Positions 13,185-46,002 of a stretch of DNA of 64,000 bases are shown here, one piece after another (position 1 is the stretch's first letter; each line of letters opens with the position of its first letter). The DNA is taken from assembly GCA_037431425.1 (NCBI GenBank), contig GCA_037431425.1_4129.2, one strand, 5' to 3'. Made by a program: the position numbers and the translations under genes. The notes under the pieces are model-generated. The model was not told the origin of the DNA. It made no database searches and was given only the letters and a program-made list of their open reading frames with translations. Origin of the DNA: a phage.

Positions 13185-13192
13185 AATAAATA
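13185..13192 (+). promoter_or_regulatory. Late-promoter-like box (AATAAATA) for the plus-strand three-gene operon
   Basis: AATAAATA 32 nt upstream of ATG at 13224; divergent from the box at 13151-13158. Confidence 0.4.
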
Positions 13193-24200: not shown

Positions 24201-27200
24201 TCGTTAAGCTCAATAGTACTACGTTGTCGCCCAATAGCTTTCCAATAAATTGAATCACGTGATTGAGATTTGATATATAAAGTCCAAATGTTTTCACTAT
24301 CTGTGACTCTAATTATATCACCAACTTGATAGTTTTTAGCATTTGCTTCTTCTAAACTTATCTCTTGGATGTAAGCAGTTTTGCTATCATACCCAACATC
24401 ATACCAATCTGCATAAGACCAGTATTGAGTCATATCTAATGATGTTCCGAGTGATTCAACATAATCCGATTGCTTAATCATTTTATGTTGTCCTTCACCT
24501 TTATTTTCTAAAGTTATAGTAACAACACTACCTGCATTAGCTGGACTATTCATTAACTGAATATATCCGTTTTCATCGAAGTGAATAAAATAAACAGCAC
24601 TAGTTGATAATGGAGTCGGTAGATAACCGCTAGAACTTAAAATAACAGCGTCATTTTCTTTAAATTTATCCTTTTCAACTGCAATTACAAGTTCATTATT
24701 ATAAGTTAATACACGGAACGAAACCTCATTAGGGTTAACTTCTGTAGTTTTAACATTAAACACATCTTCCATAACAACACTATTAGTAGTTATGTTTTGT
24801 GATCTATAATAATTATTTGCACTTTCTACAAAGTTTCTACGTGCCTCTATTATATTCTGGAACCAAGTTTTATTAGAGCCTAAACCAGTGCCAACTTCTG
24901 GATATAATAAATCTACAACCTTACCTGACTTCGTAGTTTCTTGACCAATTAGAGAGTTCCACATAGAGTCCCAAATTAGTGGGTTAAAATTGTAACTTTC
25001 ACCCTCTTTACAAAGTTGATATTGATCATGTTTAACAACTTCTGTATTGTCCATATAGTAAGAAATAGTCAAAACACTAGTATCATCATTAACTTCAAAC
25101 TGCATATTACTAAGAATAAAAGAGTTTTCATTAATTGGTGCGAACCAAGGAATGTTCAACTGTGATGGATCTTTAATAATACGTGCAATGTCAGTACATG
25201 ATTTTGTTCTGGTATGAATAGGTGGTACATAAATTGTATCACGTACCCAGAAATAGTATTTTGTTACATAACTGTCAGTGGAGCTATCATATTCCAAAAA
25301 TGTACTATAATTATCTTCAAGTGCTGTTCCACTTGGAAGATACATATTATTATTTTTGTTTTTCTTAGCAACATCTTTACAGTACTTATCCCAGTTATAT
25401 GGTTCTACTGGTGAACAAACCCATTCCAACACATCAATAGTACTATGTGGCAACAAACGACCCCAGTTGTAACGTTTATATTCATTGGTTGCGTCAATAT
25501 CAACATTTCCATCTGCATCATAAATGGCACGAGTATAATCCAAATAAAAAGCGGTGCTAGTGTTCCACCATACTTGACCAACTTTTTCAGCACCCCACGC
25601 CTGAACCAATTCGCCATTACTATTATATTGAGCAGGGTCGATTGGTGAAGTATATGTTACGTTTTGCATTGCTGCACCAGGAATAACACCATTAATTGGG
25701 TCATAAACATTTAGATATAATGCAGTAATGTTTGTACGTTCATCATATGTAGTTGGACGTTCAAACAAAGTACTTTGTGGTGCTTTAAAACTATATTTTT
25801 TATCAATATATGCTTGACGCTCTTCAGTACTCACAAAACGCGAAACATAACGATACAAACGAGGGCGTGTATCTGGGTCAGTAAATTCGATATTAATTGA
25901 AGTATCAAATGGAACCACCATAACTTTGGAATCATCCCCAGCAGTATAATATTGACTTTCTACTGTTAAAGTATCTGGCATAAAGTTAGTTTCGTCCACA
26001 AAATAATAGTAATCACCATCTTCAAGAGGGATATCATCAGATAGAGTTACTTTACAGAATTTCTCAGCGTAAACATCTGTGGTTTCGATTGGTGTAATAG
26101 AAACCATTTTAACATTAGTGTCAATTAATTCAAAAATGTTCCATAACCCATTTCCATCTTTGAACATCCATACTGATTCAGGATTTTCACCTTTACCATT
26201 GATATACAACATACGGTCATTGAATGCAGTACTGAAATCTTTCGTAGTATAAGATACTTCATCTAATGTAACTGGACCAATATCAGGCAGTTGGATGTGT
26301 TCACTTCTACCACTACGCATTGGGAAAGAGAATTTACCATTTGGACGAGTAATCCATTGTGGGTCTTTTCCTTGTTCACCAAAGAATACAATATTGTTTC
26401 CATTGCCATTTGATGTTGCATTTTCATCAAAAGACATCATTTGTGGCTGCTGCTTAAATTGGTCATTAATCAATTTAAATTGAAGGTTTTTCTTTCCATC
26501 GATGTTACCATATGTACCAACTTTAAACGCCCATTCTTGTAATGCTTTATATTCATCAGTATCATAGGATTTAGAAACACGAAGAACACGTTCTAAAACT
26601 TGGTTTGTACCTTTGTCATGAATAAATCCTTTATAGAAATCAACACGACTTACATCACTACTAATCATACGTTGTAGATAATCACGAGATTGATAACCAA
26701 TCAAATGGCTAGACAATTCTTGTAATTGTACATCGCTAACGGGATGTTCATTGTCATAGTAATGTTGAAAATCTGTTACTAGAGTTTCAAATGATGGTAT
26801 TGTACCAGATTCCAAAATAATAAAACCAGGTGCTTGTAATCTACCAGTCCATGAACCAGTAATGTACCCATACATTTTAATTAGTTCCTGGATAGAACCA
26901 TAAGTTGGTTGATAGATATAATCACCAAAAATAGTCTTATCATCAAATATAACAGCATGTTCATATGAACACAAACTTAAACGGATTAATGCAATACGCT
27001 TATTAGAATCGGTTGTTCTAACAGTGAATATATTACCAATACGTGAAGTTTCGATTTCATATTGACGAATACCTTGGTTATTATCATCAAGCAATGACCA
27101 CACACCACCATTATTTTGTGTAATAGACTGTACTGAACCAAAATCCGAACCAAACTTAGCATTTGCAGCACTTGGTGTACAAGAGATAAATTCGCCAGTT

Positions 27201-30200
27201 ACCAGAGGACTCTGACTCCATATCACAAAATCTTTAGCAATAGTGTGCCAATCTTGCTGAATACCATCTTGATTAACATCTTCGAAAATCCAGCCATGTT
27301 CTTTAAGATACTCACCATATCCACAAATAAAAGTGTATACTTCTTGATAACTATTGAAAATAGTCCCATATTCAATAGAAGCCTCAGACTTCCATTCATT
27401 ATAATGAACAATATTACGGTTTTCCAATTTAAGAGTTACTTTTCTTCCATTTTTTACTGGAAGTTTATATTTAAATTTCGCACCAACCAAATCATATCCA
27501 TCAATTTGATATGCACTACCATTCCATGTAATTTTGATGGCACTCATCTGTTCATCGCGAATGTTATTCGAACGCACCAGACCAATCGTTTGGTTTTCTT
27601 GTGAAATAAGACCAAATGATTTAGCGTTGAATGTTAATTGATCTGCTTTAGTAAAGCCACCAATTTTATGTCCCACATTTACGTAAGACGAACGTACAAC
27701 ATCTCCATATTTTGTAGTAATATTTTTATTTTGATACATCAAATAATCACTAACAAACATTTGATATCCAATTGTTCTTGTGTTATCTTCACCATGAACA
27801 GTTGTGTTTTTATCAAAATTCACACGATTGCGGGTATCCCCGTACAGAAATTGTTCACCAGTGGTGATAATTTCTTTCAAATTGTCATTACGGGTATCCC
27901 AATAATAGTTGGCAAATTGTGCAGGTTTAGCTTTATACAAAAGTAACATTTGGTCATATGCAAACAATGTGGTGTTCATATACGTAAATTCCATATCACC
28001 CATGTCGCCATACGCCCAAGGTTCTGCTCGGTGAACTAAAGATCCAGACACTAATCCTAAAACTTCAGGAGCAATATACTCAACCACACAAATATCTACA
28101 CCGGATGATGTTTTATTTCCAGTTTTAGTAATTTTAAATGGTTGTACACCAAATCTTTTATATTTGTCATACTGACCACGGCGGTCGCCATATAAAATTG
28201 TCCCAGTACTACTATCGCCGATTGTATCATTTACATCCCAAAGTCCACTAGGAACCAAATCACCTTGTTCATCAGTTACAAGTGCCTCATATACATAAAC
28301 TACATCACCATCACGTTCACCAACTTGGACAGCGGTTGGTTCATACTCTTGGTTCCACCAAGTAGGACGTTGTGTAAACCCAAACATTTCCCATGGATGT
28401 GTAGCAGGGCGATATGTACCATATTGATCAGTATAGATTGCACGCCATGAACCACGAGCAGGAATTTCAGTACTTTTACCATCAACAACATAATAGGTTC
28501 CAGTATAGTTCCATGTTCTCCAGTTATTAGGATCATAATCATGTGTGCTATTACTAATACCATTAGATGCAGTGAAGTTAATATAACCACGTAATAGAAG
28601 TGTTTGTTTTTCTTCTGCACTATATTCAGTTTTTGTAAAATATGGCGTAGGGAAAAGATCATCACTATTCAATACAGGGACATAATCAACATCTTTGAAT
28701 TTATTGTCAATACTATTGAAAATTCTATTTTCAAGTTCATATACAACATCATCCATTTTATCAACACCATTGATAACACGGTATGCTTTAGAAATAATAC
28801 CAGTATGGCTGATATTATAATAGCTAGGTTTACTACCAGCAGTTAGGAATGTTGCTTTCTCAGGAACGTATGCTTGTAGAATACCTAAAAACTGTGGAGT
28901 TGGTGGTATAAATGCACGAATAAGACCAGATGTACTACCCACATTGTCATAATAGAATGGGAATGAACTATCACGACCCATATTAATAGTTGCCAAAATA
29001 GAATCAACGATGTTAGCTGCACTATTTTGTAAAAAGTTAGTTGGGTTTTCATTGTACATTCTAAGCATTTGTGTATTAAATTTATTAATGAATCTGAAAT
29101 ATTCAGATTGCATAAACATAGTTGCTTCAAATAAATCAATATCTTCATTTGCAGTATGAGCCATCAATGGGAGCATAGAAGCTTCATTTTGAATAATTTT
29201 AGTTCCTACTCCATTATTCACTAATCCCTTAGCTAAACGTTCTTCATAATCGTTGAAGTCATCAGCATAACCACTAGTGATATTCTGTTGAATAATATCC
29301 TGAAAATGAAGAGTATAGTCTCCTTGATTAATATATATAATATTGGAGTTATATGGGTTATTTTGTAAGTTAATTGGAACTTCATATGCACCTAATTCTT
29401 TATCAGGTGTTACAGTACTGCTATAAGTTCTAATTTGAATAACAGAATCATCATCCAATTCAACACTGTTATCGATTGTGATACTTTGCACTTGACCTTT
29501 TAATACATTCTTGGTATATTTGGAGATATTAACACCATCAACAACAACTTCAATAATATCAGAGTCATTGTCTAAAACTTTTTGTGCCAATTCAAAAGTA
29601 TGGTCATATTTTAAAACCTGAATACCATCACCACTAATTTGATGCCAGTCCAAATATGTTTCACGTTCAGCTTTATAGTACTGATATGTTTTATCAACTT
29701 CGATGACATATGCATACATACCCTCGACTGGTTCTTTAAACAGTTCCATATCATAAACAGAACTAAAGACTCGATACATATCAGTACGTTTGACTTGAGG
29801 TGTCTGTTTTACAAATTGTTTAGAGAATTCTTTTGAACGCACCCAATCAGTTTGAAGATTCATTTTATTATTTTCATCAATGATGTTATAATAATACAAA
29901 CCACCGATTTCAACTTCAACACCAAGATGGTCATATGTATAACGTTGTGATTGTAAAAAGTTTTCATAAGTGTAATAGTTATAATCACCAAGTTCAATGT
30001 TATACCCATATACACTATCAGCCGCGTAGTTATAGTTTATTTTAAATCCAAATAATGGTGAACCTTTAAATGTACTGGATGGGTACGTGGTGCTGTTATC
30101 TAGTTTGATTCCATTACGATCATAAAGTTGGAATTGAGGAAAGACGTTAACACTTGGCTTCGCCTGTGCACGAACCCATAATGTTCCATTCCAATACATA

Positions 30201-31204
30201 GAATTATTGCCGTACTCATTTCCTTTTGTGACCAAAACTACGTCACCATTTTGTGGTTCACCACTTGGACGGGACTCAGTTTCTTCATTTGGATCTAGTG
30301 CTAAGCCATAAACGCGTGTACCATCTTGCATTTTTTTAACATACACTTTATAAATTCTATTGTTTTCACCATCATTACCAATACTGGTGAATAGAATACG
30401 CATACCATCTTGTGGAATAATACCATCAATGCGAATACCGCTATTGACATCTTTTTGAATAATATCTTCAGGTTTGATACTATCAGAAAAAAGTTCAACT
30501 GTTCCACGGAATTTTGTACCGTAGTTAATTAGCTCGATATTTTTATTATATTCGATAATTGGTGCACGAGCACGAATAAAACGAGAATCTTGCATTAGCT
30601 CTTCAGTCAAGATAGAACCGTCTTCTAGTGTTTCACCTAAAGTATACCAAAAGTTTTGCAAAGACCATGTATTACCATTAAGTGCTCCACGTTCCATTAC
30701 AATGTAATCAGGTGTAATGATATTATAAGAGTTTTTGGTATCCCAAAGATACGAACTAAAATTGTTCATTTTATTTGGGTTAATTGCAGGAGTCCATGCA
30801 TAAAACTTACCGTTAAATAAACGACTTTCATTATCGGTTAGTGCTCCGTAATGACTCATGTATCCAACAAGATCATCATAAAATTGAATTGAACGAATTG
30901 TTGAATCATCATTTTTAGAGACATAAGCAGTGGACAACTGATATAGTTGACGTGCAACAGAACTTTCATGCAAGAAGATATTACCAGCGGCAGCCGGAGA
31001 ACCCATGTCACCAATATAACCGTCAACCAATTCGTTTTCAGCCGGATTAAACCATTGTTGAATAACATCATCACTGACTTTTTGAATATCTTCTAAGCCT
31101 TGCATCCACTCAGGCAATCTTTTGATAAAAAGCTTTTTCTGTACTGCTTCAGCCATCTGTGTAGGTTGAAACTTAAAATTATTAGTCATTTTTCTGGACT
31201 CCAT
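21221..31204 (-). CDS. Giant virion protein (3327 aa), possibly an expanded gp7-like baseplate wedge protein
   Basis: Uninterrupted 10-kb ORF; downstream of the gp25-like and gp6-like genes, the slot gp7/gpI occupies in other contractile-tail baseplate clusters; GGAG sits before the sixth codon (ATG at 31189), so the true start may be there. Confidence 0.6.
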   Translation of the reverse strand: MESRKMTNNFKFQPTQMAEAVQKKLFIKRLPEWMQGLEDIQKVSDDVIQQWFNPAENELVDGYIGDMGSPAAAGNIFLHESSVARQLYQLSTAYVSKNDDSTIRSIQFYDDLVGYMSHYGALTDNESRLFNGKFYAWTPAINPNKMNNFSSYLWDTKNSYNIITPDYIVMERGALNGNTWSLQNFWYTLGETLEDGSILTEELMQDSRFIRARAPIIEYNKNIELINYGTKFRGTVELFSDSIKPEDIIQKDVNSGIRIDGIIPQDGMRILFTSIGNDGENNRIYKVYVKKMQDGTRVYGLALDPNEETESRPSGEPQNGDVVLVTKGNEYGNNSMYWNGTLWVRAQAKPSVNVFPQFQLYDRNGIKLDNSTTYPSSTFKGSPLFGFKINYNYAADSVYGYNIELGDYNYYTYENFLQSQRYTYDHLGVEVEIGGLYYYNIIDENNKMNLQTDWVRSKEFSKQFVKQTPQVKRTDMYRVFSSVYDMELFKEPVEGMYAYVIEVDKTYQYYKAERETYLDWHQISGDGIQVLKYDHTFELAQKVLDNDSDIIEVVVDGVNISKYTKNVLKGQVQSITIDNSVELDDDSVIQIRTYSSTVTPDKELGAYEVPINLQNNPYNSNIIYINQGDYTLHFQDIIQQNITSGYADDFNDYEERLAKGLVNNGVGTKIIQNEASMLPLMAHTANEDIDLFEATMFMQSEYFRFINKFNTQMLRMYNENPTNFLQNSAANIVDSILATINMGRDSSFPFYYDNVGSTSGLIRAFIPPTPQFLGILQAYVPEKATFLTAGSKPSYYNISHTGIISKAYRVINGVDKMDDVVYELENRIFNSIDNKFKDVDYVPVLNSDDLFPTPYFTKTEYSAEEKQTLLLRGYINFTASNGISNSTHDYDPNNWRTWNYTGTYYVVDGKSTEIPARGSWRAIYTDQYGTYRPATHPWEMFGFTQRPTWWNQEYEPTAVQVGERDGDVVYVYEALVTDEQGDLVPSGLWDVNDTIGDSSTGTILYGDRRGQYDKYKRFGVQPFKITKTGNKTSSGVDICVVEYIAPEVLGLVSGSLVHRAEPWAYGDMGDMEFTYMNTTLFAYDQMLLLYKAKPAQFANYYWDTRNDNLKEIITTGEQFLYGDTRNRVNFDKNTTVHGEDNTRTIGYQMFVSDYLMYQNKNITTKYGDVVRSSYVNVGHKIGGFTKADQLTFNAKSFGLISQENQTIGLVRSNNIRDEQMSAIKITWNGSAYQIDGYDLVGAKFKYKLPVKNGRKVTLKLENRNIVHYNEWKSEASIEYGTIFNSYQEVYTFICGYGEYLKEHGWIFEDVNQDGIQQDWHTIAKDFVIWSQSPLVTGEFISCTPSAANAKFGSDFGSVQSITQNNGGVWSLLDDNNQGIRQYEIETSRIGNIFTVRTTDSNKRIALIRLSLCSYEHAVIFDDKTIFGDYIYQPTYGSIQELIKMYGYITGSWTGRLQAPGFIILESGTIPSFETLVTDFQHYYDNEHPVSDVQLQELSSHLIGYQSRDYLQRMISSDVSRVDFYKGFIHDKGTNQVLERVLRVSKSYDTDEYKALQEWAFKVGTYGNIDGKKNLQFKLINDQFKQQPQMMSFDENATSNGNGNNIVFFGEQGKDPQWITRPNGKFSFPMRSGRSEHIQLPDIGPVTLDEVSYTTKDFSTAFNDRMLYINGKGENPESVWMFKDGNGLWNIFELIDTNVKMVSITPIETTDVYAEKFCKVTLSDDIPLEDGDYYYFVDETNFMPDTLTVESQYYTAGDDSKVMVVPFDTSINIEFTDPDTRPRLYRYVSRFVSTEERQAYIDKKYSFKAPQSTLFERPTTYDERTNITALYLNVYDPINGVIPGAAMQNVTYTSPIDPAQYNSNGELVQAWGAEKVGQVWWNTSTAFYLDYTRAIYDADGNVDIDATNEYKRYNWGRLLPHSTIDVLEWVCSPVEPYNWDKYCKDVAKKNKNNNMYLPSGTALEDNYSTFLEYDSSTDSYVTKYYFWVRDTIYVPPIHTRTKSCTDIARIIKDPSQLNIPWFAPINENSFILSNMQFEVNDDTSVLTISYYMDNTEVVKHDQYQLCKEGESYNFNPLIWDSMWNSLIGQETTKSGKVVDLLYPEVGTGLGSNKTWFQNIIEARRNFVESANNYYRSQNITTNSVVMEDVFNVKTTEVNPNEVSFRVLTYNNELVIAVEKDKFKENDAVILSSSGYLPTPLSTSAVYFIHFDENGYIQLMNSPANAGSVVTITLENKGEGQHKMIKQSDYVESLGTSLDMTQYWSYADWYDVGYDSKTAYIQEISLEEANAKNYQVGDIIRVTDSENIWTLYIKSQSRDSIYWKAIGRQRSTIELNDLFYVDYNVHNEDGSLSNREINIRKALALLKNSFDLHQSEIVFDMVKYVHVEQGVVDWVFKTSYIYIVGLEQSLVQNYSNDNLINQIVEYFEEVKPYRTKIRSQIEQKTSDDDLIKGLCNDLDPNGYIFVDGSWVKTEKDIWDYEYAQYNETTKKWEKVGSLPSDFIAPNRRFQEIDIIMHYDNIQCKPNKDLANINELISVNNKYQSNEKDSVNTYELQRYIYSYPVYNEQSFDLVNAYLLQTYYPELDVTLGTANGVNQWYKEHADDLEATDEFTATLERIYNESTHNEMFTDLRHYVQYNTLANRLKLYKDISDDKIHDEVGCGFSGLVYNDNPSTRLPLGFSSSNDYNYGYFEISKELYEKYISFITEKYPDASEHDIKVKLEVEYGVYVYRYDEIGGDTRFYSDAVHVLAAMRGLFDKDSTDMYEKAEEILSKTPIDIYAITMMPRKHVYLNINGEYQSIPDDKSIDDFMEDYFITNGEMIKLAEINLDDLPQDQNNPMYSDYQYIIDSIAEAKFFNDMNAFDNLALESQTSAIKWEVKDDEVDPYIIDISEINPASRAVGHIRFTVDGYGFDTESLVQLRNNSRYKTEGMAIINPYKHTEAIVSIPSYAKIEHDINKTASPFEEKYFYRVRSINSLTEAEIVDSDLSDGDKVMIFTPDGEDFIRYQNRTWETILRVSNIKHNTTPILFTVRTTGKETIELVDSSGNVLRYDNITLGQLNQPVQHLALNIVRVRTFADPEFTKGDIKLYEQNRNYTIDVINYDVFYDTTLNGGKYNDGVTPDDVDVWVVSNEIFNDDGITIDNGYNLPITGEGVLSELVRTKMPDCLEINVIEYDAKDIKPTKNNEGVWVYEYPMVDSMYIDVADATITNITTISEENTTYVAQPLSVSHYNVRNNVLSGSAANKSDIISIGYEKVEVRNTNNLLRGVMYSAEHDFKHDTTYSFNGINLGGYDKFKRYTQNSYTIDLSVYTNSLRVRGNDIQKILIVK

Positions 31205-31227: not shown

Positions 31228-31235
31228 TATTTATT
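31228..31235 (-). promoter_or_regulatory. Late-promoter-like box (AATAAATA) for the giant ORF
   Basis: Reverse complement of 31228-31235 is AATAAATA, 39 nt upstream of ATG at 31189. Confidence 0.4.
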
Positions 31236-35768: not shown

Positions 35769-38432
35769 TTATTGACATGCCTCTAAACGACGAGCCATTA
35801 ATTCAGCACGGCGTGTTGTTTGACGATACCAAGCCGAATTTCGTATTTGAGCAGCAGCTTGTTTATAGTTTCCTTTGGCTAATTCAGACAACATGGTCTT
35901 AAATTTAAGGACACCCCCTTTACCCATCTGGAATACCATTTGACATAGAACTTGTTGTGCCATGTAAGGAGTTTTCATGTTATATGATGCATAAATTGCC
36001 TTAGCATCATAAATTGCTTTACTACTGTCTCTAACAAGCATATCATTGGCTTCTTGTTCAGTTATACCTGACGAAAAGTTCTCACCGCTAACAATTAAGT
36101 GACCGTATCCAATAGTAGGGAATCCACGACTATCTAAGTAACGCCAGAATTTACCATTACGGTAATATCCTTTTGCTTGTTGATATTGTATTGTACCCTC
36201 ATATTCTTTTAATTCCGAAATAAACTGAGCATCACCTGGGACGATTTTCCAATCTATTGCTGTTTTATCTACGTTACCAACATTATATGTAGGTTGTTCA
36301 ACTGGCGTTGATGATACACTTCTACGTTGTGTTCTTCTTTTGCGTGGTACATGTCGTGAACCACGCTGAGAATAACCAGTCCCAATTGTTTTAATTTTAG
36401 TAGTTACTACTAATTCATCACTATCTACTGACGGTTGCACAACTGCTTGCGGTGACGATTGATTAGTTGCTTTTCCAGCAATCAAGGTTTTATTAGCTGC
36501 ATCTGCTCCAATTCCAGTTTGTGATGCATAGAACAATCCCGGATCAACTGAACCACTAAACCCAAGTACATTTGCAGACGTTACACGTATTTCAAATTGA
36601 ATAACACCTTTAGCTTTACCTATAACTTGTCCTTTTTGAACAACATCTTTATTCAATAAATCAGTTTGAATATTATAAAATATAGATTTATATCCAGATT
36701 TGTGTTGTATTAAAATACCACCATTGGTGATTGAAACAACACCACCATCTGGTGCAACAACATCACCTTTGCATTGTATTTCCCATCCAGAACGATCTGC
36801 TTTTCCACCGTTTTGTGTTGGAATACCTTTCCCCCAGTAACCATATTGACGAATTGTCCCACTACATGGCATATACATATGTAAACCTTCATATGTGATA
36901 CTATATCCAGTCATCCCAGCATCAGATACCATCAAATCTTGTGTTTGTACTTGTTCTGTTTCAGGGGTATAGTTAATAAACTGTATAGCTTCAGTTTCTT
37001 GAGCTTCTGGAATTTCTGGTGTAACATCATTAGCAGGTTGTGGCTGTACTGGTGATTCACTTGAAATCTTCCCACCGCCTTGTCTCGGTGGTTCAACAGT
37101 ACTACCATGTTTTTCTGCATTAACCCAAGCAGAAATGTCATGAATGTGTTCATTTAGACCCGTAGATGGTGTTTTAAAGTTAGGAGCAGTAAATTCAGCA
37201 GTTCCGCTGTTTCCTCCACTGTTAACAGTCAATGTTTGACCACCACCACTAATTATTGCTGATGATGAACCAATTAAATTTGCGGAAGTAGAAGCAGATA
37301 TAGATGCATTTGAACCTGCGGTAATATCAGTACTACTACCACTTTGCATACGCAATGATGCAGCAGTAACTAATCGGAGATCTGCACCAGAATTAACAAC
37401 AACCTGACCACCAACTTTTGCATCAAGTGCACCAATTAAATCCAACTTAGTATTTGCACCAACACGTGCATTGAAATCTTGACCAGATTCAATATTATAT
37501 GAACGACCAGCAATCATATTAATATCCTGACCAGCACGAATATTGATATTCTTATCACAATGCATATCAATATCACCTTCACCTGTAAATTTTATGCGTG
37601 CTGTTCCGTCACGGTTAATTAACAGAACGTCGCCTGTTGCTTCTGACAGTAATAGCTGTGCACCACTGCGAGTTTTTATAACAACTCCTTCATTTTTACG
37701 GGAACCAACACGTGTATCGTTTACTGGGTTATTAAATTGTGTATCCTGATAACCATCTGGATCTTGATCCCATGTAGGTGCGGTTAATTCCTCTTCAGTA
37801 TATCCATCATCGATAATAAAACTATTTCCACGTGGTGACGACATGCCATATACAGTACTGGTTGTCTGGCGGGTGCTACTGCGATTAGCAAGACCTGCTT
37901 CTTCATCATATAAAAGGTTTTGTTTTTTCAAACCAGCAATGATTGGAACGTTTGCATACTTATCTTGCATGTCCGTTGTGATTGTGTTACGATCATAATC
38001 AGTAACAGGGATAGGCATATCCGTTCCGCTATAACTACTAACTTCAGTTGCCATGCCTGGAACCATAGTATTCATGCGATGGTCATATACACAGCCAATC
38101 CAATATGCCTGAAATGTACGTGCCTGTGCGAAAATCACAATAACAGTGCACCCAACATCAGGCGGTACAGCCCAGAATCCATAGCCTTTGGGATATTGAC
38201 CATATGCATCGGCACTTGGAATACCTGGTGTTTTGCCAGCAAATGGTGACATATATGATGCTTCAATCCATGATTCTTTGGAATTTTTATCACTTTGTGA
38301 ACCTTGTATCCAAACTTTCAATTTTCCTGATTTAGTTGGATCTCTATTATCCATAACCGTTGCTAACTGTGGGTAAGATGGGTCAAAACGACCCAACTGT
38401 TGTTGTGCATACTTTTTACTTGTATCTGCCAT
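35769..38432 (-). CDS. Baseplate central spike, gp5-like (887 aa): OB-fold N-domain, beta-helix, M23-like domain and C-terminal lysozyme domain
   Basis: N-terminal VMDNRDPTKSGKLKVWIQGSQSD...GFWAVPPDVGCTVIVIF (gp5/VgrG-type); repetitive beta-helix segment; LytM-fold block ILIQHKSGYKSIFYNIQ...KGQVIGKAKGVIQFEIR; C-terminal EYEGTIQY...LDSRGFPTIGYGHLI lysozyme. Confidence 0.7.
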   Translation of the reverse strand: MADTSKKYAQQQLGRFDPSYPQLATVMDNRDPTKSGKLKVWIQGSQSDKNSKESWIEASYMSPFAGKTPGIPSADAYGQYPKGYGFWAVPPDVGCTVIVIFAQARTFQAYWIGCVYDHRMNTMVPGMATEVSSYSGTDMPIPVTDYDRNTITTDMQDKYANVPIIAGLKKQNLLYDEEAGLANRSSTRQTTSTVYGMSSPRGNSFIIDDGYTEEELTAPTWDQDPDGYQDTQFNNPVNDTRVGSRKNEGVVIKTRSGAQLLLSEATGDVLLINRDGTARIKFTGEGDIDMHCDKNINIRAGQDINMIAGRSYNIESGQDFNARVGANTKLDLIGALDAKVGGQVVVNSGADLRLVTAASLRMQSGSSTDITAGSNASISASTSANLIGSSSAIISGGGQTLTVNSGGNSGTAEFTAPNFKTPSTGLNEHIHDISAWVNAEKHGSTVEPPRQGGGKISSESPVQPQPANDVTPEIPEAQETEAIQFINYTPETEQVQTQDLMVSDAGMTGYSITYEGLHMYMPCSGTIRQYGYWGKGIPTQNGGKADRSGWEIQCKGDVVAPDGGVVSITNGGILIQHKSGYKSIFYNIQTDLLNKDVVQKGQVIGKAKGVIQFEIRVTSANVLGFSGSVDPGLFYASQTGIGADAANKTLIAGKATNQSSPQAVVQPSVDSDELVVTTKIKTIGTGYSQRGSRHVPRKRRTQRRSVSSTPVEQPTYNVGNVDKTAIDWKIVPGDAQFISELKEYEGTIQYQQAKGYYRNGKFWRYLDSRGFPTIGYGHLIVSGENFSSGITEQEANDMLVRDSSKAIYDAKAIYASYNMKTPYMAQQVLCQMVFQMGKGGVLKFKTMLSELAKGNYKQAAAQIRNSAWYRQTTRRAELMARRLEACQ

Positions 38433-38442
38433 ATTTTATTCC

Positions 38443-40692
38443 TTAATCAACTATACTATCTTGACGTTTAAGTGCACGGATTACAATTGCAGCTTGAATT
38501 TGTTGTGTGAAAGAACCACCTGCTCCAAAGTCATGCACAATTTTATTAACACGATAAATGGTTTGATTAAACGTGGTTGGTGTATTAATATCCAATACAC
38601 CCGTGTTATCATTAATTGATACTACAGGTTGTAATTTAAGTAAAAGGTATGCTTCAGATGTTATATAGTTTGCTACATGATAATCATCTGGATTAATTTC
38701 CATATCTTCCCCATTAATTACTTGCTCTAGATATTGTAAGTACGAATAATCACTCCATCCAAGCCAATATGGGTCACCAACAACTCGCATATCAAGTTTA
38801 CACAAAAAAGGTCTATTGTAATAGTTGTCACGTATTTTACGTCTATCCATTTCATATGTACTACTGTTATCATTTAATGAAGCAGACAGTGTGGTTTCGT
38901 TGTTAGTTGCTTCAGTTGGCATAGTGAATATTTGACCATATCGATGACCAACGCCGTCAGTACCTTCATCAGTTTCTTCATATGTGGAGACATAATCTTC
39001 AATATATTGTGGTAATACATTTACTTGATAATTATTATAACGATCCTGCTCTTCTGCATTTCCAACCTGCATTTGGTTTTTAGCTAATGTGTCAATATCA
39101 TTTAATAAATCTTGCTGATCTTTGGTTAGCATACCACCCATATCACGTGTAACACGCAAATCGCTTGTTTTCGCCCATGCATCTGGTATACTATTATATT
39201 GTACACCTTGTATATTCAATTCTTGTGAGTTATGTGTACCTGAATGGTTTGCTACGTCTTGTATTGGACCAGGGTTGCGAGTAGTAGCTACAAAAAATTG
39301 CTGGTCAAATTTCAAATCCAAATCAAGTATCTCACTATTAAGTCCACTAAACTGATAATTATAAGTTTTCATGTTTATTTTAGGTTTTTGATCAATAGGA
39401 TCTACGTATTTTTCTGCGTTCTCAAAAAAGTACTCAAATGTGAAATTTTCTGGTTTCAAGTCAGATTCATGTACAATGTCACCTATTTTAAATTTAACTA
39501 TGTAAAAAATTACTTTATAAACAGATGTATTACGATAATTATCAAAACCTATATATTGTTTTATTGGTATAATATTAACAAATTGTCTTACACTAGTACT
39601 CTCATCCGCTTGTACAGTACAAGTGTCGATAACATCATCAATAATTCTTGATATTGGTGTGCTTGGGTTCCATGAAAAGTTTTTAGAACCTTGTGTTCCA
39701 CTTTTAGTCGTTCCTGCTTCTGCCATTTGTTTTGAATCATAGTTGATAAAAAGATCTTGTAAATCAGGAGCTACTTTAAATTCAAAAAATTTACCATCGG
39801 ATAATTCACCAAATTTATATCTTAGATAGCCATATTGTTGATCTGCCATTTGATTTAATTTATCTTCTAAATCAAAACAGAAATCACCAAAGTTTTCAGC
39901 CGTACAGTTAAATGGTTCTTTTAATGTCCATTCCATGTTGTCAACTAATGCTGCTCTATTATGAACTAAACTCATAGTATATAGCATAGTACTACCACTT
40001 TGTGATGCACTTGCTGTAATACTATTAATTTTTACAGACCATCTTCTCGTGGTTTCTGGTATAATCTCAGGTATTCCATTCTTATTAAAACCAACAAACT
40101 TTAACTCTAAGATTAAAGGTAAGTCCATGAATTTATGAAATCTAAGTTTGTTACTTAAAGATACTAATTCGTCATATAGACTCATACTGTTATTCTCAGA
40201 CATATTAAGAACTGCGGTATTAAAACAATAATTCGTTGTCATTCCTGGTGTGGATGGTCCTGCTTGTGTCATTTGAACACTTGTTATATTATATTTTCCA
40301 CTAACGCCACTTTCTGATATAACATAGCGTTGTACCTCTGCATCAGGGTAAAGCCAAAAGTTTTTGAAATCATCTTTATCTAAAGCAAACAGACAAAAAT
40401 GCCAAGTTGGGTTGTCATATTTTAATAACTTATTCTCATATGGTATTACAAACTGACTTAAATCCAAATCTTCATAAACTTGGTCCATTCCGGCACTTTG
40501 TGATGGTAATGATTCAACATTACTAACGTTTGCTTTATAATTATTTTTCGTGATAGTTTTTACATCATTTTGTAATGTATTGGTGGTGGCTTTCAAATTA
40601 TCAAGTGAATTATTTGCAGTTGTTTTTGTCTTACCAGTGATATTTGATATATCATTTTGAAAATTATCAACTGTACTTCGTAAATCTGCCAT
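38443..40692 (-). CDS. Hypothetical baseplate protein (749 aa), possibly gp27-like hub by position
   Basis: ORF with RBS GGAG; sits between the LysM-like gene and the spike gene; no motif recognised. Confidence 0.5.
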   Translation of the reverse strand: MADLRSTVDNFQNDISNITGKTKTTANNSLDNLKATTNTLQNDVKTITKNNYKANVSNVESLPSQSAGMDQVYEDLDLSQFVIPYENKLLKYDNPTWHFCLFALDKDDFKNFWLYPDAEVQRYVISESGVSGKYNITSVQMTQAGPSTPGMTTNYCFNTAVLNMSENNSMSLYDELVSLSNKLRFHKFMDLPLILELKFVGFNKNGIPEIIPETTRRWSVKINSITASASQSGSTMLYTMSLVHNRAALVDNMEWTLKEPFNCTAENFGDFCFDLEDKLNQMADQQYGYLRYKFGELSDGKFFEFKVAPDLQDLFINYDSKQMAEAGTTKSGTQGSKNFSWNPSTPISRIIDDVIDTCTVQADESTSVRQFVNIIPIKQYIGFDNYRNTSVYKVIFYIVKFKIGDIVHESDLKPENFTFEYFFENAEKYVDPIDQKPKINMKTYNYQFSGLNSEILDLDLKFDQQFFVATTRNPGPIQDVANHSGTHNSQELNIQGVQYNSIPDAWAKTSDLRVTRDMGGMLTKDQQDLLNDIDTLAKNQMQVGNAEEQDRYNNYQVNVLPQYIEDYVSTYEETDEGTDGVGHRYGQIFTMPTEATNNETTLSASLNDNSSTYEMDRRKIRDNYYNRPFLCKLDMRVVGDPYWLGWSDYSYLQYLEQVINGEDMEINPDDYHVANYITSEAYLLLKLQPVVSINDNTGVLDINTPTTFNQTIYRVNKIVHDFGAGGSFTQQIQAAIVIRALKRQDSIVD

Positions 40693-40704
40693 GTGTTACT
40701 CCAT

Positions 40705-41019
40705 TTAGCCTATATTTCGAGTACCATTAAGATAGTTTTGTACTCTTTGATTTGCTGGTATTCTAATTGTTACCCCACTTTTAAAATTATATATTGGGTC
40801 TTCTCCTAATATGTCTGGATTTAATAACGCAAAGATATAATATAATCGTTCATTTCCGTACATTTCGTATGCCAAACGCCATGGTTGGTATTCATATTTC
40901 AATGGTATCTCATAAAAATCATCAGTATCTGCCGGAATGATGTCACGTGGTAAATTATACCCAAGATACCATGTTTGTTTCACCTTAGCATAAGGTGAGT
41001 ATTGACTATAGTTGGACAT
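40705..41019 (-). CDS. LysM-like small baseplate protein (104 aa), gp53/gpX-like
   Basis: WRLAYEMYGNERLYYIFALLNPDILGEDPIYNFKSGVTIRIP resembles LysM and T4 gp53 (ANAIYGNPQLYWVLLMCNDNYDPYY); RBS GGAGGA; 1-nt stop/start overlap with upstream gene. Confidence 0.5.
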   Translation of the reverse strand: MSNYSQYSPYAKVKQTWYLGYNLPRDIIPADTDDFYEIPLKYEYQPWRLAYEMYGNERLYYIFALLNPDILGEDPIYNFKSGVTIRIPANQRVQNYLNGTRNIG

Positions 41020-41750
41020 TAAATAAATCCTCCGTTGCGTAATAGTTCACCTCGCTTAAAAGCATTTAGGTTGAATGTTTTAGTCATATAATCGGAAGTA
41101 GGTTGTTCTTCAAGCTGTATCATAACCGATATTTTTTGTGGAACCCAAACCTCATCTTGTGGGTTCATATACCCAGTACTTCTAAGTTGTTCAAAGAATT
41201 TCCTACTATCCATATCGGATAAGTTAAATGTACTGTCACTACTATTCAAAGGAACTTGAATATAAGAAACATCATTTGGATATGTAAAATTATAAGATTT
41301 TAAAATAACAGGAATATCATTATATGTATATCGCCCATACCCACTTAAAAGTAAGATTGGTGGTGGAGCACCTGCAATTGCAAGTTCTGGGTTATTCGCT
41401 GAAGCAGCTTGTCTACCAAAATCCATCAATGAAACTGAACGTATAAAATGGATACATGCTAATGTGTACATAGCTTCTGCTGCTGTGTTAGCATAAAACT
41501 CACCCTGAATGGTGAAAACAGTATTAGAAGTGTTCTTATAGTTGTTATAGTTACTGTTGGTATGTATCGGTGACTGTGTTTCATACTGAATTGACCTTTG
41601 TTCAGTAATTATTGGTGTTACAGTCCATACCAACCCATTAGTTGGACGCAGAAACGAAAGTAGTGTGGGTTCAGAACTATCTCCGAAATCTCCATATACA
41701 TAGTTAGCACCTGCGGCTTTAGGTCGTAATCGAATTCTACGATCAATCAT
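41019..41750 (-). CDS. Hypothetical baseplate/tail protein (243 aa)
   Basis: Start moved from track 41777 to ATG at 41750 (GGAG 8 nt upstream); a late box then sits 34 nt upstream. Confidence 0.5.
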   Translation of the reverse strand: MIDRRIRLRPKAAGANYVYGDFGDSSEPTLLSFLRPTNGLVWTVTPIITEQRSIQYETQSPIHTNSNYNNYKNTSNTVFTIQGEFYANTAAEAMYTLACIHFIRSVSLMDFGRQAASANNPELAIAGAPPPILLLSGYGRYTYNDIPVILKSYNFTYPNDVSYIQVPLNSSDSTFNLSDMDSRKFFEQLRSTGYMNPQDEVWVPQKISVMIQLEEQPTSDYMTKTFNLNAFKRGELLRNGGFI

Positions 41751-41783
41751 TTTTGATTCTCCATAATAAGGGAACATTTGATG

Positions 41784-41791
41784 TATTTATG
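41784..41791 (-). promoter_or_regulatory. Late-promoter-like box (CATAAATA) for the minus-strand baseplate operon
   Basis: Reverse complement of 41784-41791 is CATAAATA, 34 nt upstream of ATG at 41750. Confidence 0.4.
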
Positions 41792-41794
41792 GGT

Positions 41795-41822
41795 GGGACA
41801 AACTGGTTCTTAGTGCTATAAT
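41795..41822 (+). promoter_or_regulatory. Sigma70-like promoter with extended -10 for the gp55-gp47-gp46 operon
   Basis: GGGACA (41795-41800) - 16 nt - TGcTATAAT (41814-41822); weak -35, strong extended -10. Confidence 0.45.
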
Positions 41823-41831
41823 AACATTGAT

Positions 41832-41848
41832 GGTACAAGGATTGTACC
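41832..41848. promoter_or_regulatory. Palindrome GGTACAA-GGA-TTGTACC just downstream of the gp55 promoter
   Basis: 7-bp perfect inverted repeat at the predicted transcription start / 5' UTR; candidate operator or RNA hairpin. Confidence 0.35.
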
Positions 41849-41879
41849 TATTGGATTAGAACATGGAGAGTGTAACACA

Positions 41880-42719
41880 ATGACAAGTAGACCAAAGCGT
41901 AAAAAGTATCTCAACAATGCAGATTTACTTCGTGAAATACAAAAAAGTAAGATTTCATACTGCTGGTTATTAGATAAATCATATAGTATGTATGATTATA
42001 TTGTCTTTCATGAATCTGAAATCACGGCTGAGTTACTTGAAAAAGCTAAAGCAGCACGAATTAAAAGACTCAACAATGAAATGCTTGAAAGTATTCGTGC
42101 AAAGGAAAACATGAGTGCAAAAAAAGCAAAGGAATATGCAGAAGAGAATAATTTAGTTATTACTGACGTTCCAATTGATGAAGTTGTTATTCGTGTTATT
42201 ACTGATGAACACATTCCACCAGATACTAGAGTTAACTTTGAACCATTCAAGCATTATATTGTGGATAATGAAGGTATCCTTTATGAAGTTTGTCGTTCTC
42301 ACTGGAAAGGTGACCTAGAAACTGGTGAATTCTGCACTATTCACGGTAAAATTACTAATGAATTGGGTAAAATGTTCATTAAACTTGCAGAGGAAATCTC
42401 ACATAAATCTAATTATAGAAACTATACTTACTTAGATGAAATGATGGGCGATGCAAGAATTCAATTAGTTAAAAATGCACTACTCTTTAAAGAGAGTATT
42501 CTTTATAAAAAAGATAAACCAGCCGTACAATTAAATCCTTTCTCTTACTATACATCGTTTGTAAACAATAGCTTTCGTTCTATTTTGAATAGTGAGAAAA
42601 ATGTTCGAAATATACGTGATGATTTACTCGAAATGCATGGTTTTACACCATCACACACACGTCAAATTGAAATTGAATTGAACATGATTGAAAGGAAAAA
42701 TGAAGATGGCTCTATTTGA
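41880..42719 (+). CDS. 55: Late-transcription sigma factor, T4 gp55-like (279 aa, with a ~100-aa insertion)
   Basis: N-terminal KKYLNNADLLREIQ parallels T4 gp55 KYNYVNNKELLQAII; C-terminal NPFSYYTSFVNNSFRSILNSEKNVRNIRDD parallels [28 protein letters not shown]; T4 gene order 55-47-46 preserved. Confidence 0.7.
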   Translation: MTSRPKRKKYLNNADLLREIQKSKISYCWLLDKSYSMYDYIVFHESEITAELLEKAKAARIKRLNNEMLESIRAKENMSAKKAKEYAEENNLVITDVPIDEVVIRVITDEHIPPDTRVNFEPFKHYIVDNEGILYEVCRSHWKGDLETGEFCTIHGKITNELGKMFIKLAEEISHKSNYRNYTYLDEMMGDARIQLVKNALLFKESILYKKDKPAVQLNPFSYYTSFVNNSFRSILNSEKNVRNIRDDLLEMHGFTPSHTRQIEIELNMIERKNEDGSI

Positions 42720-43737
42720 TAAAGCAATTACATTCACTGATATTCACTTGGGATTAAAGAATAACAGTAAACAACACAATGAAGATTGTTTAAACTTCAT
42801 TAAATTTATGATAGATGAGGCAAAAAAGAATAATATCAAAGTTTGTGTTTTTATGGGAGATTATTTTCATAATAGAAGTAATATCAACATTCAAACACTA
42901 AACTATGGTTTACAGATTCTTCAACTACTGAATGACAATTTTGAAAAAGTATATTTTCTTGTTGGGAATCATGATATGTACCATAAGAACAAACGTGATA
43001 TCACAAGTATCAATATGGCTCAAGTATATGAAAATATCGAGTTCATCAATGAAATCACAACATTTGACGATTGTACATTCATTCCATTTATGATTGAAGA
43101 TGAATATAAACTATTACCTCAACTAAAAAGTAAGTATGTTTTCGGTCACTTAGAATTACCAGGGTACTTACTTAATAAGATGGTAGAAATGCCAGACCAT
43201 GGGAAAGAAACCGATGGTTCTTTTAGTGGGTGTGAATATGTTTTTAGTGGGCATTTTCATAAAAGGCAAGCAAAAACAACATCTAAAGGAACTCGTGTTG
43301 TTTATACTGGTAATTGCTTCCCACATAATTTTTCCGATACGTGGGATGATGCAAGAGGTGTAATGATTCTCGAACACGATAAAGAACCAATTTTTAAATC
43401 GTGGGATAGTGCACCAAAATATCGAACATTCACACTTTCCGAATTATTGACTGACCCCAGTTATTATCTTCAAGATAATACAATTTCTAAAGTTCAAATT
43501 GATATATCAATAACAACGGATGAGATTAGTTTTATTCGTGATACTTTTACTAAACTATACAACATTAGAGAGTTTAATGTTGTAACAAGTAAACAAAATG
43601 TATCAGAATTAATTGAAGATGGTGTCAATTTTGAAAGTACTGAATCAGTTGATGAGATTGTTTTACAACAAATCATGGAAATTGATTCACCAATGTTTGA
43701 TAAAAATCTTCTAATCCAAATTTACAGATCATTATAA
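42706..43737 (+). CDS. 47: Recombination endonuclease subunit, T4 gp47 / Mre11 (SbcD)-like
   Basis: Phosphoesterase motifs TDIHLG, GDYFH, GNHDMYHKN, GHLELPGY, FSGHFH; start moved from track TTG at 42688 to ATG at 42706 (RBS AAAGGA). Confidence 0.8.
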   Translation: MALFDKAITFTDIHLGLKNNSKQHNEDCLNFIKFMIDEAKKNNIKVCVFMGDYFHNRSNINIQTLNYGLQILQLLNDNFEKVYFLVGNHDMYHKNKRDITSINMAQVYENIEFINEITTFDDCTFIPFMIEDEYKLLPQLKSKYVFGHLELPGYLLNKMVEMPDHGKETDGSFSGCEYVFSGHFHKRQAKTTSKGTRVVYTGNCFPHNFSDTWDDARGVMILEHDKEPIFKSWDSAPKYRTFTLSELLTDPSYYLQDNTISKVQIDISITTDEISFIRDTFTKLYNIREFNVVTSKQNVSELIEDGVNFESTESVDEIVLQQIMEIDSPMFDKNLLIQIYRSL

Positions 43738-43745
43738 GGGACTAT

Positions 43746-45893
43746 ATGCTAAACATTACACGTATATCTATGCGAAACTTCTTTTCATTCGGTAATGCAC
43801 CACAAATTATTGAATTGAATAGTTCTGACATTTCATTAGTACTGGGTCAAAATAATGATGCAGTTATTGAAGGCGGTGACAGTTCTGGACGACGAAATGG
43901 TGTAGGAAAAAGTGCAATTATTCAAGGATTAGTTTTTGGATTATTTGGAAAAAGTATTGGGAATGATATTAAAATCCCCAACTTAGTTAATAAAACTAAT
44001 GGGAAAAATTGCGAAGTTGTGGTGGAGTTTGAAAAAGACGGTGTGCAATATATTGTTGAGCGTGGGAGAAGTCCCACGTATTTCAATCTTGTTACTTTAG
44101 GTAAAGATGACAAAATTGAAGATGAATCAAGGGGTGAAAAGAAAGACACTCAAGAAGATTTGAATGAAATTCTTGGAATATCCCAATTATTATTTGAACA
44201 TATTGTAGTACTGAATGCAAACGTTGAACCTTTCTTGGCGTTATCCACACAAAAACAACGTGATATGATAGAAGAACTTCTAGGTATAACACAGTTAACA
44301 GAAAAAGCCGAAATATTAAAGGAGATGTACAAGGATACTAAACGCTTAGCAGAGCAAGAAAAGTTTAAAAATGAAACAGTTGCTGCAAGTAACGAACGTA
44401 TTCAAAAAAGTATTGAGGTTCTTCAAGAACAGGCAAACCAATTTGAGATCGATAAAAGTAATAGAGTAGCGAAGTTAAATGAAGAGTTGAATATTTATAA
44501 AACTTTCGACTTCAATGAACTCTATAAAGCTGCTGAAGAGAAAGAGAAAGCTCTTATTCATAACACAAAGCGTAATGAAATAGAACGCCGTGTACAAGAT
44601 TTAGCTTTAAAATTTGATGCATATGACCGTGAGATTGAATCATCCAAACGTGCACTAAAACTAAGCATTGATAAACTAAAAACTATTGATATTAGTGCTG
44701 AGTTGGAAAATCATAATGAACTAGAGATATGGAAACAGTTAGAAGACATTCTTAAAGAGAATAATAACCAAAAACGTTTCAAAGAGCAAAAGCTAAACTC
44801 ACTAAAAGTTGCATTAAAAGGGTATGAATGTTCAATTAATGCTGAAATTGACAAATTATCAACCGTTGAAAATAGTAAATGTCCACTTTGTATGTCAGAA
44901 TTGGAACATAATGAACATACTTCTTCAATTAAAGATAAAATTCAAAGTACTATTGACGATCTTCAAGCCAAAATTGACAGTTCTTCTTCTGAAATTGAGA
45001 TTTTACTTAAAGAAATTGAGAGTATTGAGATTTTTGATATGCCACCTAAGCCTGTGACATATTATAATACACTTTCAGAAGCACAAATGCATGAACATAA
45101 GCTTCAAGAATTGATCAAAAAGAGTGAAGAAGAGCCAATAAACATCTATGCAAATGAACTTATGTCATCATATGATGAACTTAACTCATATGAACTAATG
45201 GAAGTTCCAGATACATTAAACAAATATGAAGTTAAAGAGTTGGAAATGACCGTAAATTCATTATCACAGCAATTAGATCGTGAATTGAAGACTACTAACA
45301 CATTTATTAGTCAAATTAATACCCTGAAGACTGATTCTTTAGTACCAATCGATTATAGTGACTATAATAATCTTGATAAAATGTCAAATCACCAAGATTT
45401 CTTGGTTAAATTACTTTTAAACAAGGATTCTTATGTCCGTAAACGTATTATTGAGCAAAATATCTCATATTTGAATACACGACTTCAGTACTATATCGAT
45501 ATGTGCGGTTCTGAGCATAATGTTGTGTTTTTGAATGATTTGAGTGTTGAAATTGAGAAGAGTGGGCAGTACTTTGACTATAAACAGCTTAGTCGTGGTG
45601 AGCGTACAAGGGTAAACATCGCATTATCTTGTGCTTTCCGTGATACATACGAGTCATTATATCAAAGTATCAATCTAATAGCACTAGATGAAGCTTGTGA
45701 TGTTGGTCTTGATTCAAGTGGTGTTGTTAAAGTGTGGTCAATCTTCAATGACATGGCTGCTATCAGAAATAAAAATGTATATATCATCTCACATAGAGAA
45801 GAACTAGTTTCTAAGACTGAACATATACTTAAAGTAACCAAAGAAGATGGTTTTAGTACTATAAGTTACTGTACAATTGATGATATCTATTAA
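43746..45893 (+). CDS. 46: Recombination ATPase, T4 gp46 / Rad50 (SbcC)-like (715 aa)
   Basis: Walker A GRRNGVGKS near N-terminus, long coiled-coil middle with CPLC zinc hook, C-terminal signature LSRGERTRVNIALSCAF and Walker B IALDEA. Confidence 0.8.
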   Translation: MLNITRISMRNFFSFGNAPQIIELNSSDISLVLGQNNDAVIEGGDSSGRRNGVGKSAIIQGLVFGLFGKSIGNDIKIPNLVNKTNGKNCEVVVEFEKDGVQYIVERGRSPTYFNLVTLGKDDKIEDESRGEKKDTQEDLNEILGISQLLFEHIVVLNANVEPFLALSTQKQRDMIEELLGITQLTEKAEILKEMYKDTKRLAEQEKFKNETVAASNERIQKSIEVLQEQANQFEIDKSNRVAKLNEELNIYKTFDFNELYKAAEEKEKALIHNTKRNEIERRVQDLALKFDAYDREIESSKRALKLSIDKLKTIDISAELENHNELEIWKQLEDILKENNNQKRFKEQKLNSLKVALKGYECSINAEIDKLSTVENSKCPLCMSELEHNEHTSSIKDKIQSTIDDLQAKIDSSSSEIEILLKEIESIEIFDMPPKPVTYYNTLSEAQMHEHKLQELIKKSEEEPINIYANELMSSYDELNSYELMEVPDTLNKYEVKELEMTVNSLSQQLDRELKTTNTFISQINTLKTDSLVPIDYSDYNNLDKMSNHQDFLVKLLLNKDSYVRKRIIEQNISYLNTRLQYYIDMCGSEHNVVFLNDLSVEIEKSGQYFDYKQLSRGERTRVNIALSCAFRDTYESLYQSINLIALDEACDVGLDSSGVVKVWSIFNDMAAIRNKNVYIISHREELVSKTEHILKVTKEDGFSTISYCTIDDIY

Positions 45894-45900
45894 TAACAGA

Positions 45901-45927
45901 AAAGGGGGCTTATGCTCCCTTTTTTAT
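45901..45927. terminator. Intrinsic terminator after gp46-like gene
   Basis: Stem AGGGGGC / GCTCCCT (one G-U pair), loop TTAT, followed by T6. Confidence 0.55.
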
Positions 45928-46002
45928 TATCATTATATCTATTGTTTCCATACATCCTACATCGAACTAGATTTTGTAAGATATAGGATTGGTAATGTGT
46001 TT

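Follow-up and report, generated by a model that had tools for sequence, protein, structure and literature searches.

The window, that is the whole stretch of 64,000 nucleotides analysed here, encodes a late sigma factor of the T4 gp55 type in which an autonomous domain is inserted between the first two helices of the sigma core. Taken as a whole, the product is probably best explained as a gp55-type specificity factor for late promoters that consists of sigma region 2 only and carries the insert as an accessory. Both the gene and its family had already been annotated: several GenBank records name the product as a late sigma factor, and the orthologue CBB_244 of CBB was tied to gp55, with ATAAATA motifs and the missing gp33 and gp45 also noted (PMC5259590). 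What is newly added is the anatomy of the late sigma. No description of the anatomy, autonomy and conservation of the insert, of the missing clamp tail or of the non-conservation of the cysteines was found in the literature searched.

The source of the window is an Asteriusvirus (RaK2-like) jumbo coliphage. Its DNA from 38000 to 46000 was 99.5% identical to that of Escherichia phage ph0011 (OP557969, genus Asteriusvirus, 348 kb) and about 90% identical to that of phAPEC6, SHEFM2K, slurp01 and other RaK2-like jumbo coliphages. At the protein level, the late sigma has the very sequence of its ph0011 counterpart (100% identity) and shares 90-97% identity with other Asteriusvirus proteins. Genes for baseplate and virion proteins are found upstream of the late sigma gene on the opposite strand, and SbcD/gp47-like and SbcC/gp46-like genes are its 3' neighbours, a partial likeness to the T4 arrangement. 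The SbcD/gp47-like gene begins, in a different frame, within the last codons of the sigma gene (window 42688-42719): the shared stretch measures 32 nt with the TTG start chosen in this analysis and 14 nt according to the SHEFM2K annotation, which suggests translational coupling. The features of the locus are listed in Table 1. In the sigma70-type promoter-like site the -10 TATAAT is preceded by TG, and a site of this kind would fit early or middle expression of the late sigma gene; the motif scan found no ATAAATA in the region upstream of the gene itself.

Table 1. Features of the late sigma gene, its product and the adjoining promoter region (positions in the window)
Feature	Position	Strand	Basis
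CDS of gp55-type late sigma factor, 279 aa + stop	41880..42719	+	
Ribosome-binding site GGAG, 5' of the late sigma ATG	41865..41868	+	Read from sequence
Sigma70-type promoter-like site: GGGACA, 16 nt, TGcTATAAT	41795..41822	+	Consensus scan match only
ATAAATA, predicted late promoter facing the divergent structural-gene operon	41784..41790	-	Motif census
Residues 1-25, basic N-terminus and helix H1 (13-25)	41880..41954	+	N-terminal motif HMM, hhalign, PDB gp55 piece 2-25
Residues 26-158, inserted autonomous alpha/beta domain	41955..42353	+	
Residues 50-89, variable Lys/Arg-rich helical hairpin within the insert	42027..42146	+	DSSP of both models, short homologues
Residues 159-279, sigma region-2-like H2-H4 and H4-H5 helix-loop-helix	42354..42716	+	hhalign, DSSP, residue equivalences, tail comparison

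Homology to T4 gp55 and position of the extra segment

The relationship to gp55 was established by profile comparisons. The late sigma was matched end to end by phrog_12791, 'sigma factor for late transcription' (E 5e-154), and was also matched by phrog_234 of the T4 type (E 3e-17) and by a profile of short gp55 proteins (E 1.6e-16). When the long family was aligned with the short gp55 family by hhalign, a probability of 98% was obtained (E 1.9e-13), and the long-family profile matched gp55 in the PDB (7d7c_F, E 2.4e-7). Searches with the whole protein gave only noise in Pfam and, by phmmer, no match among PDB sequences. In the AF2 model (pLDDT 89.3, pTM 0.79), helices were assigned by DSSP to residues 13-25, 160-174, 185-198, 220-252 and 257-276, from which a sigma region-2-like helical fold is predicted, including the long H4 and the H4-H5 helix-loop-helix. 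The RpoS fragment 5h6x_B (partial region 1.2 and region 2) superposed on the model over 91 of its 96 residues.

The residues with which T4 gp55 reads its promoter could be traced in this fold. The H1 segment carries the gp55 motif Y10-x-N12-N13-x-D-L16-L17-x-x-I20...K24, in which Y10 (82%, with Phe in a further 11%), N13 (84%), K24 (99%) and also I20 were conserved among 102 diverse representatives of the family. In T4 the pockets for the -12, -9 and -8 adenines involve N13, L54, R57, F86, H95, Y97 and T99, of which N13 lines the pocket of the -9 adenine (PMC7892883). Their equivalents in the window sigma are N13, I173 (Tyr in most relatives), K176, F203, F221, Y223 and T225, T4 F86, Y97 and T99 thus corresponding to F203 (conserved in 95% of the representatives), Y223 (73%, with Phe in 22%) and T225 (89%), and T4 H95 to F221, which is not His. 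The acidic H3 patch of T4, comprising E70, D74 and E77, binds the beta-prime clamp helices (PMC7892883); E70 corresponds to E187, which is Glu or Asp in 95% of the representatives, D74 to D191, which varies across the family, and E77 to I194. Judged from these alignments, there is strong support that the pocket residues for a -10-like element are retained, and part of the acidic patch for the beta-prime clamp helices appears to be kept as well.

The original prediction had held that the protein resembles T4 gp55 at its N-terminus and in its C-terminal region and that its extra length, roughly residues 25-150, is internal, and on both points it proved right. Alignment with the gp55 family delimited the insertion inside the protein instead of as a terminal extension, at about residues 26-158 by structure and 23-141 by sequence register; by hhalign, residues 1-24 correspond to T4 1-24 and residues 142-273 to T4 23-152. 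The match to the gp55 structure 7d7c_F was likewise split, gp55 2-25 pairing with positions 2-25 of the profile and gp55 23-116 with positions 149-243. Relative to T4 gp55, the length balance is roughly +118 aa for the insert, +10 aa for a loop at 206-216 and -32 aa for the C-terminal linker and clamp motif.

The competing account is that the extra length is an N-terminal extension, either a fused upstream domain or the result of a mis-called start, and that the true gp55 N-terminus lies near residue 120. Such an account would explain why several local alignments begin at 124-125 (phrog_234, tblastn to cyanophage gp55, and the second hmmsearch piece), and the segment KHYIVDNEGILYEV..W142K is faintly similar to NYVNNKELLQAIIDW23K. 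It is nevertheless very improbable. An HMM built solely from the gp55 N-terminal motif PKxNYVNNKELLxAIxxWK scored 8.3 bits at residues 6-20 of the window sigma against -2.2 bits at 124-131. The main hhalign alignment paired residues 120-273 with T4 4-152, but its column confidence was near zero over 120-141, before W142, whereas the second alignment, of residues 1-24 with T4 1-24 (E 2e-5), was of high confidence. Residues 123-139 form a beta hairpin and not a helix by DSSP in both models, and Y10, N13 and K24, which are invariant in short gp55 proteins, hold identical residue numbers in the long family. Finally, no start codon stands between the preceding in-frame stop and the ATG at 41880, which leaves no room for a longer reading frame at the 5' end. 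An internal duplication of the N-terminal motif at 124-142 was also considered and was rejected on the same HMM score of -2.2 bits and the beta-hairpin structure of the segment.

Two further observations concern sigma factors in this group of phages. The ph0011 genome encodes a second sigma at 313766-314731, an RpoD-like protein of 321 aa in an early region of small ORFs, so it holds two sigma factors of unlike types. Five metagenomic homologues of 445-980 aa (P0249, P0254, P0271, P0328 and P0361) consist of the same sigma with one to three intein-like elements, at highly conserved region-2 positions that correspond to Y182|T183 and N230|S231 of the window sigma (near 42425 and 42569 in the window). 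At the junctions the sequences are ...NYRNY|C...N|SY.EDM and ...KN|C...N|CFT..., and one of the elements has a LAGLIDADG_3 domain (E 6.7e-6). Inteins within a sigma factor seem unusual.

The inserted domain and its cysteines

The insert was modelled on its own from an insert-only alignment with high confidence (pLDDT 92.6, pTM 0.83) and is therefore regarded as an autonomous domain. The predicted beta core comprises strands at about 28-30, 40-42, 104-107, 123-128 and 134-142, and the hairpin consists of helices 50-76 and 80-89. In homologues of 230-242 aa (P0382, P0319) the hairpin is missing or shortened and the beta core is kept. The extra segment had been described as charged and helical. 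The insert is net acidic (-8), with only the hairpin rich in Lys and Arg, and helix is restricted to residues 50-89, the remainder being beta strand.

No Pfam family was matched by the insert, and in the PDB neither a fold match, to a known sigma non-conserved region or otherwise, nor any sequence at E up to 10 was found. When 1.84 billion cluster representatives (clusters at 50% identity) were searched with a profile of the insert alone, 433 proteins were retrieved at E up to 1e-3, 299 of them at E up to 1e-10. In all 433 clusters the insert had the same position in a gp55-like protein, about residues 20-170. The beta core of the insert is the conservation peak of the whole protein. S140 was identical in 102 of 102 representatives, and R105, H111, P113, F120, F123, H125, V137, H141, W142 and G149 were conserved at 92-99%, with R105, H111, P113, F120, H141 and G149 each reaching at least 96%.

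Three cysteines had been pointed out in the extra segment, with the suggestion that the insertion could add redox or metal regulation to late transcription. The translation contains exactly these three, C28 (SYCW), C138 (EVCRSHW) and C152 (EFCTIHG), but across the 102 representatives only C28 is conserved (Cys in 89, Ser in 10). Position 138 is mostly Gly, Val or Leu, and at position 152 Ser (45 representatives) outnumbers Cys (32). Since C138 and C152 are not conserved, the three-cysteine idea fails, and the insert is probably not a cysteine-based redox switch. The proposal can be recast as a metal-binding or redox-sensing module for late transcription built on C28, H111, H125 and H141, which are conserved in 87%, 97%, 92% and 96% of the representatives, respectively. 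Even so recast, metal or redox control by the insert is quite improbable: two of the three cysteines first proposed lack conservation, no zinc-finger or metal-binding Pfam family was matched, and C28 is replaced by Ser and H125 by Gln independently of each other while the other positions are kept, which is unlike an all-or-none site and argues against an obligate set of four ligands.

Predicted late promoters, the sliding clamp and gp33

The octamer of T4 late promoters, TATAAATA, was not enriched in the window, where 6 copies were found and 10 expected. The heptamer ATAAATA, in contrast to other 7-mers of the same composition, showed a strong upstream bias: all 23 copies in the window precede an ORF start by no more than 100 nt, and 18 of the 23 are in sense orientation. 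It is the commonest upstream 7-mer, occurring before 15 of 44 genes, and is otherwise avoided in this sequence of 35% GC. Besides the copy in Table 1, examples are found at 13186, 48482, 53710, 55579 and 59277 on the plus strand and at 35772, 34795, 31234 and 2366 on the minus strand. In the RaK2-like phages CBB and GAP32, too, structural genes were reported to be preceded by this motif (PMC5259590). We infer that ATAAATA, placed directly before structural-gene operons, is the likely target of the window sigma, a late promoter with no -35 element.

Several details of these sites were recorded. The copies at 31234, 34795 and 2366 on the minus strand directly follow terminator-like GC hairpins with T runs, an arrangement of terminator-promoter junctions between late operons, and the one at 31234 precedes a single ORF of 3327 aa (21221-31204, minus strand) in the structural region. 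In the virion ORF at 41019-41777 (minus strand) the first ATG lies only 13 nt past ATAAATA and has no ribosome-binding site; the ATG at codon 10, with a GGAG, fits better and gives the 243-aa product annotated as M2K_0525 in SHEFM2K.

The C-terminal tether by which T4 gp55 is joined to the sliding clamp is absent from the window sigma. In T4 gp55 the sliding-clamp-binding motif begins at residue 175. The window sigma stops 6 residues past the equivalent of T4 residue 152, so it has neither the linker of about 21 residues nor the clamp-binding motif, and its 18-residue tail QIEIELNMIERKNEDGSI contains no motif of the L-D-F-L-Y type. The homologues of the enterobacterial branch (P0001-P0092) are all short-tailed as well, without a clamp-type motif. 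In distant long-form homologues (P0093-P0113, for example that of Vibrio phage 2.275.O), tails of the types PLFDFGD, GMFDWGG, DLFPFDD and LVDFDDW were observed, and these forms, [LIM]FD[FW]G, LFPFDD or LVDFDDW, are similar to sliding-clamp-binding motifs. The distribution suggests that clamp coupling was lost within the long-form sigma family.

The partners of gp55 in T4, gp33 and the gp45 clamp, were sought in nearly the whole genome of ph0011, to which the window region is 99.5% identical. Profile HMMs detected neither: the best E value of the gp33 HMM against the genome was 0.18, PF16805 (gp33) was not found among 204 ORFs of 78-135 aa, and clamp families were not found among 61 unannotated ORFs of 185-275 aa. 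By phmmer, T4 gp45 and gp62 gave no match over the window and 90 kb of SHEFM2K. Two weak matches, to PF25742 'Phage Gene 33' (E 0.0067 among 110 ORFs) and to RpbA (E 0.03 among 61 ORFs), were insignificant after multiple testing. A gp44-like clamp loader is encoded, with E 3.9e-22 for the SHEFM2K orthologue M2K_0430 and an annotation at 270653-271606 in ph0011; no clamp was found beside it, the downstream gene being a 5' nucleotidase. The missing gp33 and gp45 agree with the CBB and RaK2 papers (PMC5259590, PMC3622015). Iyer et al. 2021 (PMC7824862), in contrast, gave a PCNA-type clamp and a gp33 orthologue as typical in group 2 jumbo phages; given this conflict, and as these proteins evolve fast, gp33 and gp45 may have escaped the search. 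In T4 the clamp-binding motif of gp55 is dispensable for activation when gp33 retains its own.

Possible role of the insert and comparison with known systems

The insert sits between H1 (13-25) and H2 (160-174), as would an insertion of the non-conserved-region type. The order of the helices and the superposition of RpoS 5h6x_B would make H1 the counterpart of sigma region 1.2 and H2 that of region 2.1. Topologically, the insert would thus be placed like the non-conserved region of sigma70, between regions 1.2 and 2.1. In bacterial holoenzymes the non-conserved region rests on the beta-prime clamp, beside the upstream bubble edge. The insert of the window sigma may likewise lie there, against the outer side of the clamp. 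As an accessory module it could offer additional points of contact for RNA polymerase, for DNA or for a partner protein of the phage, and thereby help to keep the holoenzyme or the open complex stable where promoters have no -35 element. The phage lineage in question is without the T4 clamp tether, and neither gp33 nor gp45 can be detected in it.

Direct contact of the insert with RNA polymerase or DNA is possible, though the odds are against it. The net charge of -8, with a basic hairpin only, counts against DNA binding, and nothing conserved was found 5' of ATAAATA that could be an element for the insert to read, which counts against sequence-specific upstream recognition. Slightly more doubtful is the fuller proposal that the insert is a built-in activator, which would hold the beta-prime clamp, the DNA upstream or the non-template strand more firmly and so permit late transcription without gp33, a sliding clamp or sigma region 4. 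It is somewhat less likely again that the insert is a docking platform for a regulator, whether a coactivator not yet recognised, an anti-sigma factor or a sliding clamp that is divergent or supplied by the host. Docking of this kind would link late transcription to replication along another path than in T4. A different coactivator or clamp interaction had also been suggested originally for the insertion. Precedent for docking exists in bacteria, where sigma non-conserved regions bind RbpA or GrgA. The strongly conserved beta core, including the surface-type residues R105, H111, H125, S140 and H141, would suit a partner; the C-terminal clamp motif is gone here while distant long-form relatives retain tails of the [LIM]FD[FW]G type; and the gene for a clamp loader implies that the phage presumably uses a clamp of some kind. 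Against docking, the ph0011 searches detected neither clamp nor gp33, and relatives with a clamp-motif-like tail also carry the insert, so the insert is not a simple substitute for the tail.

Since the gene was already annotated, the advance is anatomical and generates hypotheses. Textbooks illustrate activation by a sliding clamp with T4 late transcription, and the 433 gp55-like clusters with the insert offer a natural comparison, which bears on how a region-2-only sigma initiates efficiently and on whether T4-related phages need coupling to replication. The host is E. coli, whose RNA polymerase is used, so these questions are readily testable. If the insert does prove to be a built-in activator, a single polypeptide would solve the three-protein problem of T4, on a fold absent from solved structures.

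Compared with T4 gp55 (PDB 7D7C/7D7D), the window sigma has a domain of about 120-130 aa between H1 and H2 where T4 has none, and about 10 aa of extra loop (206-216), whereas the 21-residue linker and the sliding-clamp-binding motif belong to T4 and are missing here. Phe replaces T4 H95 and Ile replaces T4 E77, the first T of the T4 late promoter octamer is not conserved at the ATAAATA sites of the window, and gp33 and gp45, present in T4, are undetectable in the ph0011 genome. From phrog_12791 and the RaK2-like proteins annotated as 'sigma factor for late transcription' (CBB_244, SHEFM2K M2K_0523) there is no sequence-level difference; they are the same family. With the sigma non-conserved region the insert shares a general plan, each being lineage-specific, independently folded, acidic and set between the first helix and the helix equivalent to region 2.1.
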